Shown here: positions 3,858 to 26,743 of the stretch, piece by piece | Layout: each line of letters starts with the position of its first letter | Numbering within the stretch: position 1 is the stretch's first letter | NCBI GenBank assembly: GCA_012295275.1 | Contig: CM022670.1 | Coordinates: 5,270,001 to 5,334,000 of the forward strand | Length of the DNA stretch: 64,000 nucleotides | Origin: Chrysomallon squamiferum | Lineage: Eukaryota; Animalia; Mollusca | Reading direction: 5' to 3' | Program-made: the position numbers and the translations under genes | Notes under the pieces: generated by a model | What the model saw: the letters and a program-made list of their open reading frames with translations, nothing else | What the model was told of the DNA's origin: nothing | Database searches by the model: none

Positions 3858-6800
3858 ATGTCTTTTCGCAAGCCTCATTCGAAGCCACTTGCAAGTACAA
3901 AAAGCAGGTAGATTAATCAGTTAAAAAATACATATCTGTAAACATGTGTGGACACATTCATTAATAAAAACTAATTTTTGACATTGTTTGTTTTAATTTT
4001 ATATTAATTATATAATTTTTATTATTTTTATTTTTTTTCTTTCAGTTTTCATTATAACACACTACTGTCACAAATACTTGTAAATACAGTTACACACTTT
4101 ATTTTGATTTCAGAAGTCGTGTTCCTGATCCAGATCATTTACTGAAGCAGAATTTCAAACTGCACTCAGAGATTGAGGATCTAGAGAGTGCATTACAGCT
4201 GCACCATGACCTGAAGCAGGCAGAAGACAACACTGTTCAAGGAATGTTGAGGTTAGTTCATAGGATTTAATTCTTAATTAGTGTTAATTGTGATATGTTA
4301 TAGTTAATATTAGAAACATAATTTATATATCTTAAGCATTTAAAAGAGATTCAATATCTTTTGAACAGAATCCTGCAGCATTTATTTTATATATATATAG
4401 AAAAAAACCTAAAATATAATTCTGGAATAATATTCATCTATTTTTTAATTTAGTTTTTTAAATGGGGCATAGGGAAAATGATGCTAATATTTGTTATATA
4501 GTATTGATACTGGATTTAATTGAATTTGTACAAATCCAATTTGTTTCAAAAAAGAAGTTTCATTTACAGGATTACATAGTTCAAGTAAACAATTAAAATA
4601 AGTATATGATAATTATTTCTAAAGAAATTTAAGCTTTCTTTTTGTTTGTTTTTCACTCAGAAAAGAAATTGGTGGTACAAGGTGGCAACATGGAGCCAGT
4701 GGGAAGCTTCAGGGTTACAAATCAACAAATGACCTGAAAGATCCACATGGACTAACTCCAGAGACGTCAGCACAGAGAAAAAAGAGAGTCAGAGAGCAAA
4801 GCAGACTTCAGAGAACAGAGATAGCAACAAAGGAATATTTACCCAAAAGCCAACAAGATTCTTCATCAGATGATGAGTTTGCTTCAGACCTCTCTAAACT
4901 GACAGAGAAACAAAACAAAAGATACGCACCAAGAGCCCGAAGTGCTAGAAAGTCCAGGACTCCTGTTCAGAATGATAAAAAAGATTCTTCAGTTACATTG
5001 AGTTCAGTGAAGAAAAATGAAACACAGCCAGATTTGTTTTCAGCTGATCCAATGCATATAGATTATTTGAAAAATAAGGTTCTTGAAAAAATTGGAGCCA
5101 AAGTGATTAAAAGGCCATTAATAGCAAATGGAAGAAATGTCAGTGATATCGTTCCAGAATCTCATTCCAAACCAGATTTAAGTAAAATATCTTCAAATAG
5201 ATCAACACTGTCAGGGAAACAGAAATCTCAGGATTCATCAAATATTCATTCAGAAATACCATCCAGTAAGGGTAGTAGTACCTATTATAAGAATAAATCC
5301 TCTTCAAAGTCAAAAATTCAGATACCCAAAGAAAAACATGCGACACTACAGAAACAAAATGTTGTGAATGAAAACAATGAAAAAACTAATTTTGAGGAGA
5401 CAGCAAGAGTCCAGTCTTCAAGAGAAATGCCAACAAGTGATTACAGTTCTGATATAGAGGCTTGCCCAGACAAACTGGATGATTTCAGTACTGCTAGTCC
5501 AATCCACGATTATCTGTCCCATCCCATTAACAGTAAATCTGATTATATTAAAACCAAAAATCCTTCAAAGGCCAGTTCTGAGTCTGGTTGTTTTAAGAGT
5601 CACAGATGTTTGTCAGATAATGCAGATGACACACCAGTGCTAGGCATGAAATTTGCATTTTCTTCAGCATCCAGTAGTCACCTTTCTGAAAGAATTGTTA
5701 GTCCTGAATCAAAAGTAAACAACAGTTTACAGACTGAAGCAAAAGTAAAATCAGATCCAGATGTAGACTTATGGTTGAGAAATATTGGTCTCAGAAACTG
5801 TGATAAATATATTGAAATCTTTGCCAGACATGAAATTGAAATGGATGGTTTAAAATATTTGACTGCAGAGATGCTGAACCAGATGGGAATAAAAGCTGTA
5901 GGACCAGTCAATAAAATTCTTATGGCTATTCTTAATCTAGATGAAGCAAAAGAAAAGAAGGAATCTTCAAGAGTCCATAATGAAGCAAATGGCCAAGCAC
6001 ATAGGAATTCTATTACAGAAGTGTCTCACATTTCTGAAAACAAAGATTCTAAACGTTCACCTTTGTTGTCTCCAAAAGAGGAAGATTGCATTCCAGAGTT
6101 TACCAGTCAACTTCAGAAAAACTATAAGAATATGAACAAAGAGATTCATGAATCAAAGGCTGTTTCTGAATCAAAACAAACAGATAACATTTTGGACAAA
6201 AATATTCCAAAGACAGAAACGTCACAGATCCAGGCAGAAAGCAGAAGGCCTATGTCAAAGACTCTGATTACAAAAAGAAGTTCATCAGCTTCAAGAATCA
6301 CATCTGATGAAAAACTGGTTAATAAAACAAGAATGCAGTCAAAAAGTGCAAGCATTTCCAGTACAAGACAAAGAGATGTCACCAGTGCCAAAAAAGAAGG
6401 GAAGAAGGAAAAAGTAGTGACGTCTAGAGAGACATCCAGATCAAATGTAACTAACAGATTGCCTGCAGATGTTATTCAAAAGAAGGTTGACATGGGTATG
6501 TAGAGTTAGGTCTTGCTTTCACAATTTCTGTGGTTTATTCTATTCCAACATTCCTAGTTTATTTATTTGTTGATTTTCCTTTAAAAGAGTAATAAGAGTA
6601 ACACAATGACTAAAAGCAGCATATTTCCTTTCTGTTAATTATAATTACAAGAAAAAGAAAAAATCATAAATAATTAAAAATAATAATGCACTGGTATAAA
6701 AATAGAAAATATGGAAATAGAAAAATAATTAGATAAATGTATAAACATATTTGAAATTCTTAACATGCTATAACATAGCTATTGTTTTCACATATTTTGA

Positions 6801-9800
6801 TTTTTCTGATATTTATCTGTGTTGTAGGCATATGTATGGCTGCACATAAAATGGAAAACAAACAGAAACAAGAGCAAGATGAAAGGAACCATCTTCTAAA
6901 ACTGATGAGAAAGAGAAAACAGAAAAGAGATGAACTGGCAGCTAAACATTTAGAAAGAAAAACAACAGAGGTAAGTAAAAATCATGAAAATCTAACAAAA
7001 ATACATGTTAAATATTTTTTTTTTTGTATATTAAGCTTTCTCAAAAAGAAAAAAAAGATTTTTTCAACTTTGTTTATATGGGTTTATATTTTTATTTATT
7101 TACATAAGGTGGGGAAAAGATGAAAAATACAAAGAAAATGTTTTTTCAGTTTGATTTTTAGACATATATATTTTTCATAACAGATTTTTTAATTTGTTCT
7201 GTTTCTCATTACTTTAGTTTTCTACCTTGCTATTCTTGATCAATCATTTGAATAAAATAAGTTTTGGAAAATAGAAATAATAAAAAAATAAATAAATACA
7301 GTAAATAAATTAATTAATTTTTAATTTATATATATTCTTTTTTAAAATTTATATTTTCTTTTAAGTAAATGAAATGGGAATATATCATGGCACATTATCT
7401 TCCAGAATTTAATTTGATTTCAGACACATGAGCCACAGAATTCAGCTTCTGCTGATCCTTTGACAATAAATCTGTCTTCTCCTGAACCAGTCTCAAGTCC
7501 TGAGCCTGAACAAGTGCCACTGAAAATTACCCTTACATCTAAAACTAGTCATGGTAAACATCCATTACATATACTACTTCATTTACACTTATCTGTCTCT
7601 GTGTCTCACTTTTACTATCTCTCTCTCACACAGACAGACAGACAGACACACACACACACACACACATACATTCATAGACACACAAACAGACACACACACA
7701 TTCACAGAATTAAACGCTGTTTTTATAAAATGATGATAAAACCATTATTGTTTAAGAATTAAATTCTGATCATCATAGGCACTAACTTTCCTTTTCTAAA
7801 TTGTTAAATAGATCAGATGAGAATTCAGGTAGAAATGATTATGTTTACATGAATGGATATGAACTGATGTCATTTTACTGAATTTCAGACTCTCTGGTGG
7901 AAAAAAATCAACCAAAAGTGTGTGAAGAACAATCTCGACCTTTCACTGCACAACCAAATAGTCAGAAAATACAAGATGGAATTTATAAACAAGACATATC
8001 TTTATCAGCAAGGGAGAGACTGAAAAATGTTGATCTGACTGTAAATAAGCCATTGATTTATTTATTTATTTATTTATTTATTTATCTTCAAACTGATTTA
8101 TTTTAAGAATGTAGGAGTAATTATTTAATTGTGTGTTTTACATTAACTTTGTATCAGTTGTTTAGTATTTCATTGTTACTGTAAATCTTTATAATGCACT
8201 TTAAATAGTTGTGCAGATAATATTAAATTACTTACATATTTACCATAATGTTAGTTTTCATAAATATCAAAGTATAACCATTGCACATGAAGTTTTATGC
8301 TCTGAAATAACTTAGATAATGTTATGCTTGACCACCCAGAAATAATTAATATTAAAATAATATGCTGATATTAAACAGATATCTATCCATTTATTCATTA
8401 TTCAAGCTTGATCATAATGTTCATTAAACATTACTATCTTACATGAAATAAATTATTTCCATGAGATAAATCCAGATTCAACAAAAATATTGTGATGAAT
8501 ACTTAAAAATCTATTGACCACGTGTAAGGGATGGAAATGTTTTTGTTAATACCTACAGCTACAGGTGTTCAAGAGTCAGACAAACATTCACCAAAAACTG
8601 ACACTGGAAATGGTGAAAGATCTTCAGAAGCAGCTGGAGGAGATTGAGAAGGAAATAACCAGCACAGATGTCAGTACTGAAAACCACAGTGATCTGAAGT
8701 CACCACAAACCGATTATGTTAAAACATCTCATGTAGATGTGCTGAAGTTGAGTTCTGAGAGAGCGGCGTCTGCCTCAGATAATAGATCACTGCTGAAGGA
8801 TCACAGAGGTGCCAAGAATTTGGGTGATGTCCAAAATGCTGCAAGTTCGATGATAATATCAAGAAGTAAAAGAGCTTTGCTGGATGAAATACGCAAGGAG
8901 AAAGATGAACATCGAAAACAGATACGGTAAGAATAATTGTACCAAAAAAAATCAATAACAAAAATAAAAACAACACACAAACAAATATAATACCTAAAAG
9001 TATATTTTCACTAATATATAATCAAGCTTTAACAAGAACTCAATTATATTTTTCAGGCATCTGAAATCAGAATTGAGCAGACTTCAACACAAAGACCCAG
9101 TAAAGAAATCAGAATTGGATGTCAAAGATATAATATTTAGTGACAAAGGTATTTACTGCATAAGTTTCATTAAAACTGTACCTTTTATACATAGAAACAT
9201 ACTAATATGCACATGAAAAAATAAACTGAATTGCCAGTACTCGTATAAACATAAATACCTGTGAATTGATTTTATTTTCAGACATTATAGGAGAAGGAGC
9301 CTTTTCACAGGTATTCAGGGGAAGTTTTCAAGGAGCTGAAGTGGCAGTGAAGAGACTGAAAGTTCCACTGTCATCACAAGACAAAAACTATTTTGCTGCT
9401 GAGGTACATTGATATATTCTTCCATGACATACATTACTAATTAATCATGCACTTATTTATCTATTTCATTGGAAATCTAAATATTTTATATATTTCATTT
9501 TATTTCATTTCATTTTAATTTTTAAAATTTTTTTAAATTTTAAATATTTTTAATTTTTTTAAATTTTATTTTTGTTAGTTAAAGTATAAATGTCCTATTT
9601 TAATTATAACTTCATCTAATACTATAAAAGAAAATGTATTAGTTCTGTTTGTACAATACATAGTTTTATATCTGCACTAAGAATTTTGAGAAAAAATTAC
9701 ATCAAAGATAGTAATAGATGTGTGCCCACTATTTCAATGATAGTTTTGATGTGTGAAAAGTGATGGCAGCTATAGTAACACCTACGATATTGTATACATC

Positions 9801-12800
9801 ATGTTCTGCAGCCTTTAATATGATAATTCAGCAAAAACTCAGTCTTTTTAAAACTCACATACAAGGATTGATCTTTCACATGCTGAAAAAATAATAATAA
9901 TAACTGTTCCACAGGTGAGTCTGCTGAGAGAACTTCATCATCCCAGAATTGTCATGTTGATTGGTGTGTGCACTTCACGCAAACTGCCACTCATGGTTCT
10001 GGAGTATTTATCAAAAGGAAATCTTTTTGCCATTCTGCATGATTCATCCAGGTAATTAATTTTGCATGCTTTTAATTATTTCATTTCAAAAATGTTTAAA
10101 CTTAAAACATAACCTGAAATTTATACGTATTTATATTAATGATATTGTAAAATGTAACTTGAAGTATAATTTTACAATACATTTTTTTAAATTATTATTA
10201 TTATTTATTAATTTTTAATTTTAATTTTTTTTTTTTATTTGTTTATTTATTTATTATATCTATATTTTCATCCATTTACATAACAGATTGTGTAACTTGA
10301 ATATTTCTTAATGTGAATTCAGTCTAGGATGCAAGTTAAAACTTACACTGTACATTGTGAGTTCAAAGAAAATAATTCTTTAATGTTTATCTTTTTTTTT
10401 GTGCAGAGAGAAGTTTGATCATGCAGAATATTACCAGATTGCTCGAGACATTGCCTCAGGGATGGTTTACTTACACAACCATCGCCCTGCAGTACTTCAT
10501 CTAGACCTAAAATCTATGAATGTTCTCATTGGTATCGGAAACAGGGCAAAGATTGCTGACTTTGGATTCTCCAAACTTAAGTATGTTGACGTTTATTTTT
10601 TTAATTATTATTATTTTGTTTTTACATTTAGGCCATCAGGTACTTTATTGTACTAATTAGAAAGAGATACTTAATTTGGTAATTATAAATTTTTCAAGCA
10701 TGAAGTTTGATATTGTTGCAGATGTAAGCTTACACTACAAAATGAAAATATGTACTCTATATATACACACTCACACACACACATTTATATGTAGATACGT
10801 AGGTATGTATGTATGCATGTATGTATAAAATTACATTATTTATTTCCTAATAATGAAAATGTTTGTATGTTTCAAAAACATTAATCTAAGTATAATGTTA
10901 TCAAAATTTGGAAATGAAAAATTCACAGACATGATGCTGATGTGAAAGCTGCTAAGACTGACAAAGCACGCCCAATCCAGGGCTCTCCTGCATGGATGGC
11001 TCCTGAAATGGTTCAGGGAGGGGAGGTTACTCCAAAGACAGATGTCTACAGTTTTGGAATTATTCTTTGGGAAATGTTAACAAGACAAATTCCTTTTGAG
11101 CATTGCTCAACATTTCAGGTATTAGTTGTTGACAGTTTTGATATTTTTAAAATGTTATATTTTTTGACTCTAACAAAAGATAAAGTTGAGCTAGAGTCTC
11201 TGTCCTATATTTATGGGTATTTCTTATGTTTTATACAGGAGATCTTAAATATCTTAGGAATATGGTTTGACATTTGTTGGCATTGTTTGGTCTGTGTGTG
11301 TTTAAAATATATTTCTAGTATTTGTAACAAACAGTTATTTGTTTGTGTGATAAAAGTCATAATTTTATATTTTATTGGTCAGATCAACCAAAAAAGACAA
11401 CAAGAAAGAAAGTAAAAATAACACAACAATTTGTTAATATGGATTAAATTAAATTAGTATCTTCATTTTAATAATTAAAAAAAAAAATAAAGAAAAAAAA
11501 AAAAATAATAATACATTTCTGTATTTAGTTGTTATCTTTCTTATGCTGAAACTGTTTCAAATGTTAAATTTTAGATTTTGGAGAATGTTAGACTAGGAAA
11601 AAGACCAGTAATACCTGAAGATTGTCCTCCTGAGTTGTCAGAATTCATACAGAAATGCTGGGACAGCCTGCCAATGAGACGACCGCATTTCAAGGTTAGA
11701 ACAAGCTTAATTTTAATGTAAATTATAAATTATAAATGGTTATATATATAACAAAAAACAAGTAGTTTCCATGTGATATAAAGGGTTGATATACTTTTTC
11801 TTTTTCATAAACTTCAAATAATATATAGCATTTAAATAAAAATTTCAAAAATTATATATGTACATATATATAATTTTCGTAATTTTTTTTTATTATTATG
11901 TGTAATAAATGATATAAGTACAGACTGCCTGCCAGTCATAAATATTTGAATAAACACAGAAATTTAATTCTGGTCATTTCTAACATACAGAAAAAAGTAT
12001 GGCCAGAAAAGAAATATCATTAATTTAAACCATCAGGTAACAAAAGGGGGTAAAAAACATTCAGCAAAACAATAGACTTTAATCCTTTTCATAATTTGTA
12101 TAATGTGTATGTTATAAAAATATAAATTTAAAAAAACAACATCTTCTGATTTAATTTCCATCTACAGGAAGTGCTGAAGTCTTTAGAAAATCTTTCTTTC
12201 CCTCCTGACTGGAGAGCTCTTTTCCAACAAGCAGGAGTACCAGACGAAGCTCTTGAAAATCTGCAATCAACACGTAACATCATTTCTCTAGTAACATCAA
12301 CACTGGAGTCATCAAAACTACAGCACATTATCAACGAATCTCAGTCAACAGGTCAGGGAGAATCTTCCTTTAACAGTATAACTGATGAAGCTGATGAAGC
12401 TGATGAAAGTGATGAATTCACAAAAATGAGTGACGACAGTCTGGAAAATGTTAATGCAGGAACTTCAACATCATCTTGGCCTTCATTGCCTGTAAAATCA
12501 GAATCTGTGGAAGAATGGAATAACAATAATAATAAAGAAAGAAAGTCTGATCACACTGAACGGTTGGCTGTTCCATCTCTTCCTGTGAGAAGCAGTTTAT
12601 TGTCTCCAAGCCTGTCTGAAGGAAAAAGAGACGCTTCTACATCTCCGAGAAAGAGTTTTGAGGCTTGGACAGAAACTAAAACTGACACATCTCACAATGA
12701 GGATAAAACCATTCCACCACCACCTCCTCCACCACCACCACCACCACCACAACAACAACAAAAATCCATGTCAGCATCTGCATCAGGGAAAAAACAACCA

Positions 12801-13544
12801 GAGAAAGTTATGACACAAACAAAAATCAAAGTTACAGGTCAGATGCTGAAAGAGAAATCTGCAGGATTAAAGAAATGCACGCCAAAGACAAAAGACACAA
12901 AACGAAATACTGTGAAGATGAAGCCAGCAAGCACAACAGTACAAAGTGGTGCTTGTTTTGTACTAGAAGCATCAGAGCTTCAGAAACAGAGAAGCAAATT
13001 GAAGTCAACATCATGTCCTCATCCTAATCAACTTGAAGACCTCAACAAAGTGAGCAAGAAGGATCTCTTTAGTATAGCAGAAATTCTCAAACATGTAAGT
13101 AATCTTTAAATAAATTTGAAAGTATAAGAAAGTATAATATCTTTAGTGTAGAAGCAGTTCTAAAGCAGGTAAATAAATGTATCTCTAAATATTTAACTCT
13201 ACTACAGTGTGTAGATGTTTTAAAGCTAAAATTTTCTTGACTAATGTAGGGATGTTTTAAGTGAGGAATACTCAAATATGCAATTATATAATTACAGTGT
13301 AAATATTGCAGAAGCTTGTTGTTTTAACAGTTTTTGTTTCTTCTTGAAGATTGTAATAAGGAGCAATGTTTCTAAAAATCTTGGAATTGTATTAGTACAG
13401 AGCCTTTGATTCTTTTTATTGTTTATATCTTTCATATTATGATTTCATCATCAGAATTTATTTTTGTTTTAATTGTGATAATTTTGTTATTATTAATATT
13501 AGTAGTAGTAGTAGTATTAATAGTATCATCATAGTCGTTATTAC

Positions 13545-13580
<36 letters not shown>

Positions 13581-13686
13581 GGCCATGTCAGAGAGAAGAT
13601 TTGCAATGGGAGAGGTGAGAGTCAGTGTAGACACAGATGTCAGTCAGTCACAGACTGAACTCAGCTGGTCAACTATAGAAGACTGA
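3858..13686 (+). CDS. SAM-domain TKL-group (MLK/RIPK/Raf-like) Ser/Thr kinase with WASP-like C-terminus, ~1560 aa, 15 coding exons
   Basis: Phase-consistent GT-AG exons: 3858-3907, 4114-4251, 4661-6495, 6828-6970, 7424-7553, 7889-8040, 8559(or 8565)-8926, 9057-9148, 9282-9403, 9915-10051, 10407-10580, 10929-11118, 11575-11694, 12168-13094, 13582-13686(TGA). Kinase motifs: IGEGAFSQV, VAVKRL, FAAEVSLL (alphaC Glu), HPRIVMLIG, HLDLKSMN, KIADFG, GSPAWMAPE, DVYSFGIILWE, CWDSLPMRRP. An in-frame TAG at 3843 lies upstream of ATG 3858. Confidence 0.9.
5754..5940 (+). other. SAM (sterile alpha motif) domain within kinase exon 3
   Basis: DVDLWLRNIGLRNCDKYIEIFARHEIEMDGLKYLTAEMLNQMGIKAVGPVNKILMAI fits the SAM pattern V..WL..IGL...Y...F....I....L..LT...L..MGI..vG...KIL.AI. 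Confidence 0.88.
12186..13686 (+). other. WASP-like module in last two kinase exons: GBD helical switch, poly-Pro, two WH2-like motifs, C helix, Trp-containing tail
   Basis: FPPDWRALFQQAGVPDEALENLQSTRNIISLV (~12198-12293); 12 Pro (12714-12749); GQMLKEKSAGLKKC; SELQKQRSKLKST; SIAEILKH|AMSERRFAM; ...TELSWSTIED*. Confidence 0.68.
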
Positions 13687-16297: not shown

Positions 16298-19659
<3,362 letters not shown>

Positions 19660-19778
19660 AGTTTTTGTTTTACCTAGAAATAAAATAGGTACTGATTTTA
19701 AACTTATTTATTCGTTACGTCTTTTGTTGAAAAAGCTCACGTCTGAAAAAAAATAAAGTAAATTAATAAATTATTTTT

Positions 19779-22529: not shown

Positions 22530-23904
22530 TATTATTATTATTTAAAAAATACACAACTGTATATTGCATTTTAATATCTTAAACTGATACATTAAGACCT
22601 ATATTTGTTTGCACACGTACACAAAGATACAAAATAATAAGCACATTGTTATATATTTTGATAAAATTACAAAATGAAATTAAATAAATAATTATAAATT
22701 ATTATCGTTCTAAGCATGCATTAATGCTTAAGACTGGAAGTTAACATTGTTTTAATTTATTTCTGCTTAGGGAACGCCAACTAAATGTAATATTTTCATT
22801 TGCTGTTATCCGGAGTTCAATGGTACGGTATGTACTTTATTTGTATTTCAAAAATATTATATACTCACGTTTTATTTTCTTTTTCCAATTTACACACACA
22901 CACATACACACACATATACACACTACACACATGCACACGTTGTCTGGATATATAATTAAGTTATAATAAATAGTCTTCATTTCCAGGGATCCGCAGGGCA
23001 GTTTGGCGACTATAACTGCGACCTTCCAAAAAAGACGTTTGATATAATTCTGGATGCCGCCAATGACATCCGACCGAAACCTGCATTCATCCTTTTCACA
23101 GGTAAACCCGACAAAAATGAAGAACAATGCTGATAATTCTGTTGATGGTAAACAGAGCAATGACGACATTAATGCCTGTAACGAGATTTTCTTTCATAAA
23201 AATCAAGAAAATTATAAAATATGTTATTATTCTCTTTCTTTCTTCTCTCCTCCCCTATCCAAAGGTGATTCGCCACCACACGATATATGGCAGCAATCCT
23301 GGGCCAGTCAGCTGGATCGAACCCACGACACTCTGATTCGGATTAGAGAAAAACTGCCACATTTTAATATATATCCTGCTGTTGGTAATCACGGTACATA
23401 TTTGTTAATTATTTACTTACAGTGATTTTGATTTTTATGTATCTTAAACTTTAATAACTTTTTTTTAACAGTGAAATATTAAAAATTACAAATAGAATTT
23501 TTCTGAATAAAGAAGTAAATAGACAAAATAAATAAACTTTATTTTTATTGTGCTGTTGTTATGATTGTTATTATTATTATTATTATTTTAATTATATATT
23601 TAAATGTTATTTCTTCTCTTTTATTACCATTTTCTCATTACTTTTTTGTTATTGATTTTCGTTTATTGATTTTTTTTTTTTTTTTTTTTTTCAGATAGTT
23701 TTCCAGAAAGTCTGTATTATCGACCAAATGACTTGGTAAAATTTTAATATTTTGTGGGGGTTATTTTAGAAATAATTTTATAAAAAAATACAGTAATTTT
23801 AATTTTTATTTTTATTTAAATCTATCAAAAAAAAAATAGCAGAAGAAATCAAAACAAAACAAATCAAGACAAACACAAGCAATATTAATTAATTGAGTAA
23901 ACTT

Positions 23905-23943
<39 letters not shown>

Positions 23944-25899
23944 TTATTTAATGTTTTTGTTCTGTTTTGCTATCCATTCAGACTTCATGGACTAATATTT
24001 ATGCAGACATACAGGTAAATATAGAGACAGATAAACTGTCTCATTCTGTTCGTTATCAAATCATTTCATTTTTCTGTAGGAATTAAATTACAAGACAGCT
24101 CAGTGGTGGAAAACCTTATTTCCTATCCCATCCGAACAGCTTGAAAACATCGCATATTCCCTGTACTATACAGTGTTAGTTAAACCTGGACTGAGAATTC
24201 TAAGTTTCAACAGTGATTACGGGTAAGACACTAACTAATAATGCGTTTCGTCGGCAGTCACAGGTTATATCCAGTATAGCCCTGCTAGATTAATTTCCTG
24301 ATAAAAATATGTTAAAAAGAGTCACGTCTTCTATGTTAACGGAATTCACTTTATTTGGTTAGGAATTTATATTTACATTTGCCATTAAATAATATAAAAG
24401 AACGTTAAAGGTGATAATAGGCACAGGATCAGTCATCAATTTGTCCATTACGCTATTTCCGGTTCCTGTGCACATCTTTATATTTGCTTCATTCTCTATG
24501 GAAATAAACATACATATAAAAGATACGCTGATATTAATTAGCATGAAGAGTTATAGTTAAATGGCGTCAGAGGGTTTTCGTTCTCAAAGACAAAAAATTA
24601 TTAGACAACTAAAATATCGTTAATATAAAAATATATTAAGTTGCTGTTAAGAAAAAAATATTATATAAATAATACATAAATAACATTCCCCCAAAATTTG
24701 GTAAATTTAGATTTTTATTTCCTGCCAATCTGTTTCAGATACACAATGAACTTCTATGGACTCTTAAATGAGAAAAACCCTGCTTACTTCGAGCAAATTC
24801 ATTTCATGGAGAAAACTTTGCATTTTGCTAGAGAAAGCAATGAAAAGGTTAGAAAATAGTTATCTTGACAAAACAGACGAAAATACTTTGATATAACTAA
24901 CAAACATTTTAATAAGTGGTTAAAAGTCTTGAAGAAGTTTAACTTTTTTTTAGTGGATGTGTCTTGTGTAACGGACTGCAGGTTCAGTCCTCTTCGGTCC
25001 ACCTTTTGTAAAATTTCCCGTACTATGATGGTGCCACGACTGACAATTAGATTAAAACTATCAGTATTGTTATATCTGGGGTAGAAAAAAATACGCCATT
25101 ATTGTTTCACAAAAAGTGGGGAAAAACAACGACAATATTAAAATAAATAAATAAATAAATACTATAAAATATTAGTTTGATGAAAAGAGGAGGAGCTACT
25201 TTTAATTCGCGTGTAATATATAATAATTAAATTATTATTGATTACCATCAGGTTATACTTATTGGTCACGTGCCACCAGGTGACGTTGGTAGAGCAATCC
25301 TGAGCTACGGTGATTTCTTTACTGAACTTGTTAACGCCTACTCTGACGTCATAGTTCTGACAACGTTTGGACACACTCATTTCGATCATTTTGAATTGGT
25401 AAGTATTCTAGTCGTGCTTTTTTTTTGACATCCATTAAGTACTGGAAGCAGAATATTGTATTTGTCTGACAGGCAGGTTAAAGGTGTCGCCAGATGCATG
25501 TACGTGTGTCAGTGTATTTGAACATCGAATAGATCGATTATCGTCACGTGCATCTATCGACAGTTGCTCTTTTGCACGTGCCTTTATTAGTAGTCGCAGC
25601 ATCAGCAGCAGTAATCGTAGGAGCAGTAAATGACATTGTTGTTTGTTTATTACTAGAATATACTAAAACAAAATTAAGGTGTTACAAGCTGTTAAATTTC
25701 ACTTCAGGTGATGAATTCAAAAAATAACGAGGACGCTGTGGGCGTGGTTTTGATCGCGCCGTCTGTGACTACTGAAGGAAAGATAAATCCATCTTTTCGT
25801 GTGTATCATTTTGACTCGGATACATTCGAACTCGTAGATTACGACCAGTATTTCCTTAACATCACAGAAGCAAATCGTAGGTGTTTCTGTTTCTCTGTG

Positions 25900-25985
<86 letters not shown>

Positions 25986-26743
25986 ATATATCCTTTTATT
26001 CTCACATAAAATATTATTTACACATTCGTTTTATGCAGACTGTATGTATGATTTTGGTGTTATTACGTTTATATTACAGAACTGGGAAAGGCGACTGTTA
26101 AGAAATTATATTCGGCGAAATCTGAATACAACATGGTAGATCTGAGTCCAAAATCATATCTAGATTTATCTAACAGGTATTTTTATTATATATGAATGTA
26201 TCAATATTACTGTGTGCAGAGAGGTACCATTTGTTTGTCTGGGTATGTAAATAATCAGTATAAAAAAAACACCAATATGAATTTAAAAAAAATGTCTGTT
26301 GTATTTAAGGTTGCATTTAATACGATATTATATTAACAATTTGTGTTTAATATGTAAAATTATTGTCTGTTCACAATAGAAAATAAATGATTTAATGCTG
26401 GAAACTTTTTAGCAGTAGCATATTACTTCTACTACTACTACTACTACTACTACTACTATTTTTTTAGATAATGATTATTTTGCTTTTGAACATGGGCAGT
26501 GAGAACAAAATATTTAAAAATTTCAGTTTGTACAATTATCATCAATAACCAAATATAACAGTTGCTGAGGCATTCTATTTCAGATTCAAGACAAACGCAA
26601 CCGTATTTAATCAGTACTTTAACAACTATCGAGCTCGCAACGGCCTGAATATGTCATGCAATTACTCGTGCAAGCTTTCCATGATCTGTAAATCCCGTTC
26701 TACCTCACTGAGGGATTATTTGCTGTGCATGGACAAAAACTGA
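20815..26743 (+). CDS. SMPD1: Acid sphingomyelinase-like (signal peptide + saposin + calcineurin-like metallophosphoesterase), ~577 aa, 14 exons
   Basis: Exons: 20815-20943, 21496-21651, 22170-22418, 22771-22827, 22987-23101, 23265-23393, 23695-23735, 23982-24014, 24080-24222, 24739-24847, 25252-25398, 25708-25876, 26080-26176, 26584-26743. Six saposin Cys (CPYC..C..C..ICQDLNFC). Metal-ligand motifs intact: TDVHID, TGDSPPH, VGNHD, IGHVPPG, FGHTH; also FGDYNCD and APSVT..INPSFRVY. The symbol denotes the family; one-to-one orthology is unverified. Confidence 0.92.
21738..21808. repeat. (CT)n microsatellite, sphingomyelinase intron 2
   Basis: Direct reading. Confidence 0.95.
25905..25983. repeat. 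(CT)n microsatellite, sphingomyelinase intron
   Basis: Direct reading. Confidence 0.95.

Follow-up and report, generated by a model that had tools for sequence, protein, structure and literature searches.

The window, by which we mean the whole 64,000-nucleotide stretch of Chrysomallon squamiferum DNA that was analysed, carries on its forward strand a predicted gene of 15 exons (3858..13686, +), the frame of which is open from the ATG at 3858 to the TGA at 13686, with every intron bounded by GT/AG. Two alternative splice edges give a product of 1,554-1,560 amino acids. Nine exons from 8559 to 13686 form one GT-AG open frame, and six further exons lead back to the ATG. In a tblastn search with the Haliotis protein P0002, 13 stretches of the gene were matched, in order, and, among named proteins, those of abalone are nearest to the product (74% across the part that matched). 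RNA contigs bear on the junction between the kinase and the segment that follows it; the upstream exons derive from prediction and tblastn. The order of domains in the gene is a SAM domain, a coiled coil, a TKL-type kinase, a homolog of the WASP autoinhibitory domain (WAID), a polyproline run, a WH2-like motif, a C helix and a Trp tail. Elsewhere in the window are exons of an acid sphingomyelinase-like gene (23048-26139, +; Pfam ASMase_C E 1.3e-5 at 25696-26136) and, at 19204-19707 (-), an exon end that presumably resembles the start of EngB/GTPBP8-type GTPases and for which there was no significant Pfam match.

The N-terminal part of the protein contains a short Trp-Gly motif, W-x2-G-x2-G-x-L-x2-Y/F (4683..4718, +), which is kept as far as Chromosphaera, is present in 7 of the 12 family proteins checked and has no Pfam match. 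It is followed by the SAM domain (5745..5939, +; Pfam SAM_1 E 2.2e-13) and, directly before the kinase, by a conserved predicted coiled coil (8868..9100, +, in exons 8559-8926 and 9057-9148), which has a mean modal identity of 0.57 across 43 orthologs and corresponds to helix 669-698 in the AF2 model of the crinoid ortholog P0030. Six exons encode the kinase (9282..12197, +), the last helix of which ends in the exon starting at 12168; Pfam PK_Tyr_Ser-Thr and Pkinase were matched exon by exon. The catalytic motifs are intact (GxGxFxxV, VAVK, a non-RD HLD at 10498, DFG at 10558 and APE at 10999), HLD being retained in 41 and DFG in 44 of the 51 family proteins. These motifs, an xLKxxN loop and TKL neighbours place the predicted enzyme in the TKL group. 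The kinase scores best with Pfam PK_Tyr_Ser-Thr and with TKL/TK structures, and its best PDB matches include the SAM-type TKL kinases ZAK/MLK, CTR1, DLK and TNNI3K (E 1e-48 to 1e-40), the single best match being a chain labelled EGFR (E 3e-52). We know of no WAID or VCA in ZAK/MLK, CTR1, DLK or TNNI3K. The Lingula protein P0123, the annotation of which ends inside the WAID, has degenerate catalytic motifs (VLE, GFG) and is a possible pseudokinase.

Exon 12168-13094 (AG..GT, phase 0) carries the kinase on in frame and leads directly into the WAID. The kinase motif RRPHFK (11677-11694) is succeeded by EVLKSLENLS and then by FPPDW at 12198, 10 residues past the motif, which is where a sequence-only reading of this DNA had placed the start of WASP-like helices. 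That reading had also claimed that no CRIB precedes the helices and that the kinase sits where the Cdc42 site should be, unless a CRIB-coding exon had been skipped in the phase-0 intron that lies within the last kinase helix (11695..12167, +). No CRIB-like pattern was found in the six frames of this intron or of the whole window, nor in any of the 51 family proteins, whereas the same pattern detects 15 of 21 WASP-side controls. RNA contigs from three of the four runs, all of one study, join 11694 directly to 12168 (GT..AG), the remaining run, X1, having no informative contig. The skipped exon is thus ruled out by the six-frame scan and the direct RNA splice. It should be emphasized, moreover, that as the intron cuts the last kinase helix, and the WAID begins in the exon that holds the end of this helix, a CRIB exon placed before the WAID would break the kinase. 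The kinase lies at the position of the basic region that precedes the CRIB in WASP, and its last helix occupies the place of the hairpin that in WASP follows the CRIB and precedes the helical bundle (PMC8847673). The join is also rigid. Exactly 15 residues separate the Phe of the kinase RxxF from the Trp of the WAID in 47 of the 51 proteins, Chromosphaera included, the four exceptions being heterobranch snails, and Trp was seen at this position in 0 of 212 other kinase ends. In the acidic linker beyond the WAID, RNA run X2 carries a 9-base in-frame deletion and two substitutions at 12382, a difference that is likely allelic.

The WAID itself (12192..12311, +) comprises three predicted helices. 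Single sequences gave little indication of its ancestry, a PDB search recovering WASP only at E 1.1 and Pfam finding neither PBD nor WH2 in the window exons. A profile of 40 columns built from 24 orthologous segments returned six PDB matches at E<=10, four of which are GBDs (WASP 2k42, 1ej5 and 1cee, and Entamoeba PAK 4mit), none being significant. Against 1.84 billion proteins the same profile gave 90 matches at E<=0.001. We sort these into 57 that belong to the family itself, whole or as fragments, 24 WASP-side proteins of GBD type, one malawimonad kinase and eight repeat proteins, the scores of the last being sums of short stretches. The WASP-side proteins (E 1.7e-6 to 9e-4), which confirm the claim that the segment represents the autoinhibitory helices of WASP, contain Pfam PBD at E<=0.05 in 23 of 24 cases and WH1 as well in nine; the closest are metagenome proteins with a PPEW-type WAID and the pre-C motif described below. 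A reverse profile, in part circular as it was built from proteins chosen by the forward profile, gave the WAID 35.8 bits, compared with 5.9 for the best of 2,000 shuffles and 0.2 for the best of 87 other kinases. At the columns equivalent to WASP L270, F271 and I294 (numbering counted from the PDB-profile alignment, with residue names from bioRxiv 10.64898/2026.05.19.726146) all 43 orthologs have a hydrophobic residue, and at the I290 column 42 do, the remaining one having Tyr; mutation of these residues is reported in that preprint to open WASP. The C helix (mean conservation 0.62) and the WAID (0.60) come close to the kinase (0.69), the linker having 0.21. Judged on these profiles, the segment is almost certainly a homolog of the WASP autoinhibitory domain.

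The sequence-only reading had further remarked that the position of the regulatory WASP tyrosine reads IISLV. The alignment stands, as IISLV (12279-12293) matches IYDFI of the WASP chains 2k42 and 1ej5 column for column, and all 43 orthologs have either I or V at the position of the Tyr. Loss of the Tyr as a sign that the kinase has taken over was rejected, however, since the column is V, I, M or L in all 20 retrieved WASP-side segments, which were themselves chosen by likeness to the kinase-WASP family. Even so, these segments show that WASP-type proteins with a CRIB often lack this Tyr.

Downstream of the WAID a run of 12 prolines (12714..12749, +) represents a proline-rich stretch found in 25 of the 51 family proteins. 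The WH2-like motif (12963..13010, +), L-x2-Q-K/R-x2-L-K/R, is non-canonical; it occurs in 47 of 48 family tails, of which none fits the strict WH2 pattern of PMC3298513, compared with 3 of 11 WASP-side controls, and Pfam WH2 was detected neither in the window exons nor in the full-length orthologs. Chromosphaera has a canonical WH2 head at this position. Upstream of the conserved motif, residues encoded by 12831-12878 (VTGQML...LKKC) form a second WH2-like stretch, which is also present in abalone and P0158 and is not family-wide (mean identity 0.31). The pre-C motif, Q-L-x-D-L-x2-V (13017..13052, +), is recovered by pattern in 43 of 48 tails and by profile-profile alignment, and is common to many retrieved WASP tails. 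The C helix (13071..13608, +) is interrupted by the intron 13095-13581 (SIAEILKH / AMSERRFAM), a junction supported by tblastn of an abalone protein, the RNA contigs stopping short of it. The helix conforms to the pattern phi-x3-phi-x3-phi-x2-R used in PMC3298513 (three hydrophobics spaced by three, a basic pair and a closing hydrophobic), in 48 of 48 tails, which bears out the earlier prediction of a C helix downstream. The protein ends in an A-like tail (13609..13686, +) with 6 acidic and 8 Ser/Thr residues among 25 and a Trp at 13666, a residue conserved in 47 of 48 tails and absent in the acoel. At 655 residues the acoel protein, P0124, is the shortest complete ortholog; it retains the kinase, WAID, WH2-like motif, pre-C motif and C helix, and lacks the SAM domain, polyproline and the terminal Trp.

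A single-sequence PDB search with the tail returned nothing relevant. Comparison of the family tails with 11 complete WASP-side tails by hhalign gave a probability of 97.3% (E 2.7e-11, 59 columns), and the scores of the 48 family tails lie between 17 and 36 bits, whereas none of 2,400 shuffles exceeds 10. As the WASP-side proteins had been selected by their WAID alone, the tail comparison is independent of that selection, and the match points to a WASP as the ancestor of the entire C-terminal half. In composition the two groups differ, the acidic fraction being 0.24 in the family and 0.56 in the 11 WASP-side tails, and the Ser/Thr fraction 0.24 and 0.12, respectively. As the family tail is half as acidic as WASP tails and twice as rich in Ser/Thr, phosphorylation could complete it.

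Named orthologs, which the databases call 'uncharacterized', 'drkB/drkD-like' or 'splB-like', occur in molluscs, a nemertean, a brachiopod, an annelid (partial), crustaceans, echinoderms, a hemichordate, amphioxus and an acoel. The ichthyosporean Chromosphaera perkinsii has one too (P0198), which contains the kinase, WAID, canonical WH2 head, pre-C motif, C helix and Trp. A quick tree of kinases, built from 15 rows of the family and 36 others (four family rows were dropped because the cutting pattern failed, and named human TKL kinases were absent), placed P0198 as sister to 14 bilaterian kinases with an SH-aLRT of 100. The Chromosphaera ortholog and its position in the tree make it likely that kinase and WASP were joined before animals arose. 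The named matches include no vertebrate, insect or nematode protein, which is weak evidence of loss and may be why this branch was overlooked.

In four heterobranch snails the WAID profile score is nil. Two of these proteins keep the Trp at the WAID position beside the kinase in an otherwise decayed WAID, and the three with complete tails, P0033, P0042 and P0050, have lost both WAID and pre-C motif and kept the C helix and Trp tail, which makes them a natural deletion of the putative clamp. The joint loss counts as one evolutionary event, and P0050 and P0037 are possibly mis-predicted at the junction. Loss of polyproline in these snails was rejected as evidence of co-loss, as 26 of the 51 family proteins have none.

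Structure prediction gave a mixed picture. In the full-length AF2 model of P0030, the WAID helices (975-983, 988-992 and 994-1009) follow immediately on the kinase with pLDDT 81-86, and the C helix has a pLDDT of 78-85, a value that is no proof of docking because it is similar in a low-pTM model without the kinase. That model, running from the WAID to the end, had a pTM of 0.23 from a shallow alignment (~19 effective sequences). Foldseek returned four weak matches for it, the top three of which were WASP/N-WASP GBD structures (E 4.6-8.4; the 1ej5 match had an rmsd of 7.6), and with the full-length model it returned kinases only. In the kinase-free model no docking of the C helix was seen, the structure search treating it as a lone helix, and a wide VIA-align search gave a best Z of 4.3 to generic helices, with WASP absent among 50 rows. 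Complex prediction for Haliotis kinase plus WAID (1072-1386) with the pre-C/C segment (1684-1724), run without alignments, gave no answer, with a score of 0.02 in both runs and controls that did not fold. As there is no sign of docking in the kinase-free model, the clamp considered below is deduced rather than modelled.

We propose that the WAID clamps the C helix of its own chain, and that the kinase, having replaced the CRIB hairpin, gates release of a VCA-like tail that would then activate Arp2/3, a reading to which we assign a probability of about 0.45. That the clamp exists is, by analogy, probable: contact between the WAID and the C helix would follow the WASP precedent and involve the conserved clamp residues. 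The last kinase helix and C-lobe would pack on the first WAID helix in the stead of the hairpin, and the state of the kinase, or its autophosphorylation, may open the clamp. The rigid spacing and the intact catalytic motifs suggest that release may be driven by the kinase. As the CRIB-less layout recurs in lineages as far apart as amphioxus and a unicellular relative of animals, the kinase is likely to act as the switch in the GTPase's place. The acidity that the tail lacks could come from phosphates on its many Ser/Thr residues, and the tail, once free, would activate Arp2/3. In WAVE2, serine phosphorylation of the VCA is needed for high Arp2/3 affinity, and two of the five phosphorylation sites inhibit activation (PMC2798068). 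We hold it a shade less probable that the proteins constitute an undescribed subfamily of Arp2/3 activators of the WASP type, which would be older than animals and retained in many invertebrate phyla. Here a non-RD kinase within the chain would have replaced the Cdc42-binding hairpin, propping and opening the helices and acidifying its own tail, to give a self-switching actin nucleation factor free of GTPases. Against the proposal stands the atypical tail, with strict WH2 in 0 of 48, less than half the acidity of WASP and polyproline in 25 of 51 proteins, as does the absence of any docking sign in the kinase-free model.

It could be argued that the clamp is real and is opened from outside, by a partner of the polyproline, SAM domain or coiled coil, by another kinase or by a competing helix, the fused kinase being a parallel output at sites of actin assembly. 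The homology evidence for kinase gating applies equally to this scenario, and PMC3298513 describes CRIB-less WAIDs with no kinase in ascomycete WASPs and Entamoeba WAML, from which it follows that other routes can release, or dispense with, the WAID. External release would, however, leave unexplained why the 15-residue join has stayed clear of indels in 47 of 51 proteins and why the WAID Trp survives beside the kinase in two decayed snail WAIDs, and we consider it distinctly less likely than the proposal above. More doubtful still is the view that the WAID now does no more than cap the C-lobe of the kinase structurally, while the free tail activates weakly, anchors the kinase to Arp2/3 or actin, or inhibits. 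The degenerate WH2, weak acidity, lack of a docking sign in the kinase-free AF2 model and the fact that heterobranch snails manage without a WAID are consistent with a cap, but throughout the family the WAID and the C helix have retained their clamp-face hydrophobics, and the pre-C motif disappears along with the WAID. Finally, a PAK-like arrangement, in which the helices keep the kinase inactive (probably in trans, within dimers formed by the SAM domain or the coiled coil) or alternate between it and the C helix as the sequence-only reading had envisaged, is improbable, for although the WASP and PAK switches are homologous and Entamoeba PAK 4mit is among the six PDB matches (over 15 positions), no CRIB-plus-kinase PAK occurs among the 25 non-family, non-repeat matches, the domain order is reversed, the kinase is TKL-type, the co-conserved partner is a WASP-type tail and, as the helices follow the kinase without a linker, they would probably not extend to its substrate face in cis. 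One of those 25 matches, the malawimonad protein P0212 (Gefionella okellyi), has, ahead of a different kinase, two WAID-like stretches without a CRIB and a linker rich in proline (residues ~40-115), and it has no VCA, a layout that favours a PAK-like reading and is possibly a second, independent pairing of WAID and kinase.

If the kinase-gated clamp is correct, the proteins form a new branch of the WASP family with its own kinase in place of the CRIB, whereas the WASP-type switches known so far respond to Rho GTPases, to lipids or to kinases acting from outside. The sequence-only reading was right that a WASP switch without a CRIB is present here, although such a switch is not new in itself, being known from PMC3298513. 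The novelty lies in the fusion of kinase and WAID, which is absent from the literature searched, though WASP-family surveys may list such genes. The family makes the release of a CRIB-less WAID testable, a question left open for WAML in PMC3298513, and tractable hosts include sea urchin relatives, amphioxus, the acoel and Chromosphaera, in addition to the natural deletion in heterobranch snails.

Currently the closest comparison is with WASP and N-WASP, where the WAID, proline-rich run, WH2-like motif, C helix and Trp tail succeed one another as they do in the family. The family differs in lacking WH1 (Pfam found none in the window exons or in full-length P0002-P0004, P0124 and P0198), the CRIB and a Tyr at the Y291 column, in having a SAM domain, coiled coil and kinase instead, and in its non-canonical WH2 and half as acidic tail. 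Group I PAKs, in which a CRIB-inhibitory switch precedes an STE20 kinase, likewise combine a WAID-homologous switch and a kinase in one chain. In contrast with PAK, the switch described here is C-terminal to a TKL-type kinase without a linker, lacks a CRIB and is succeeded by a VCA-like tail. Entamoeba WAML (IMD-WAID-polyPro-VCA) and the CRIB-less ascomycete WASPs also join a WAID to a VCA without a CRIB; their N-terminal partner is an IMD or WH1 rather than a kinase, they belong to other lineages, and Pfam IMD was not found in the full-length orthologs. WAML must be released in some other way, as stated in PMC3298513, and for the CRIB-less Wsp1 of fission yeast the accessible text of PMC2171502 reports assays of the VCA only. 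Amoebozoan WAWH, a WASP without WH1 (PMC3298513), similarly places the C-terminal half of WASP on a different N-terminus, but keeps the GBD and has no kinase. By its anatomy the family would work like a WASP-family nucleation-promoting factor, and it lies outside the WASP, WAWH, WAML and PAK subfamilies.
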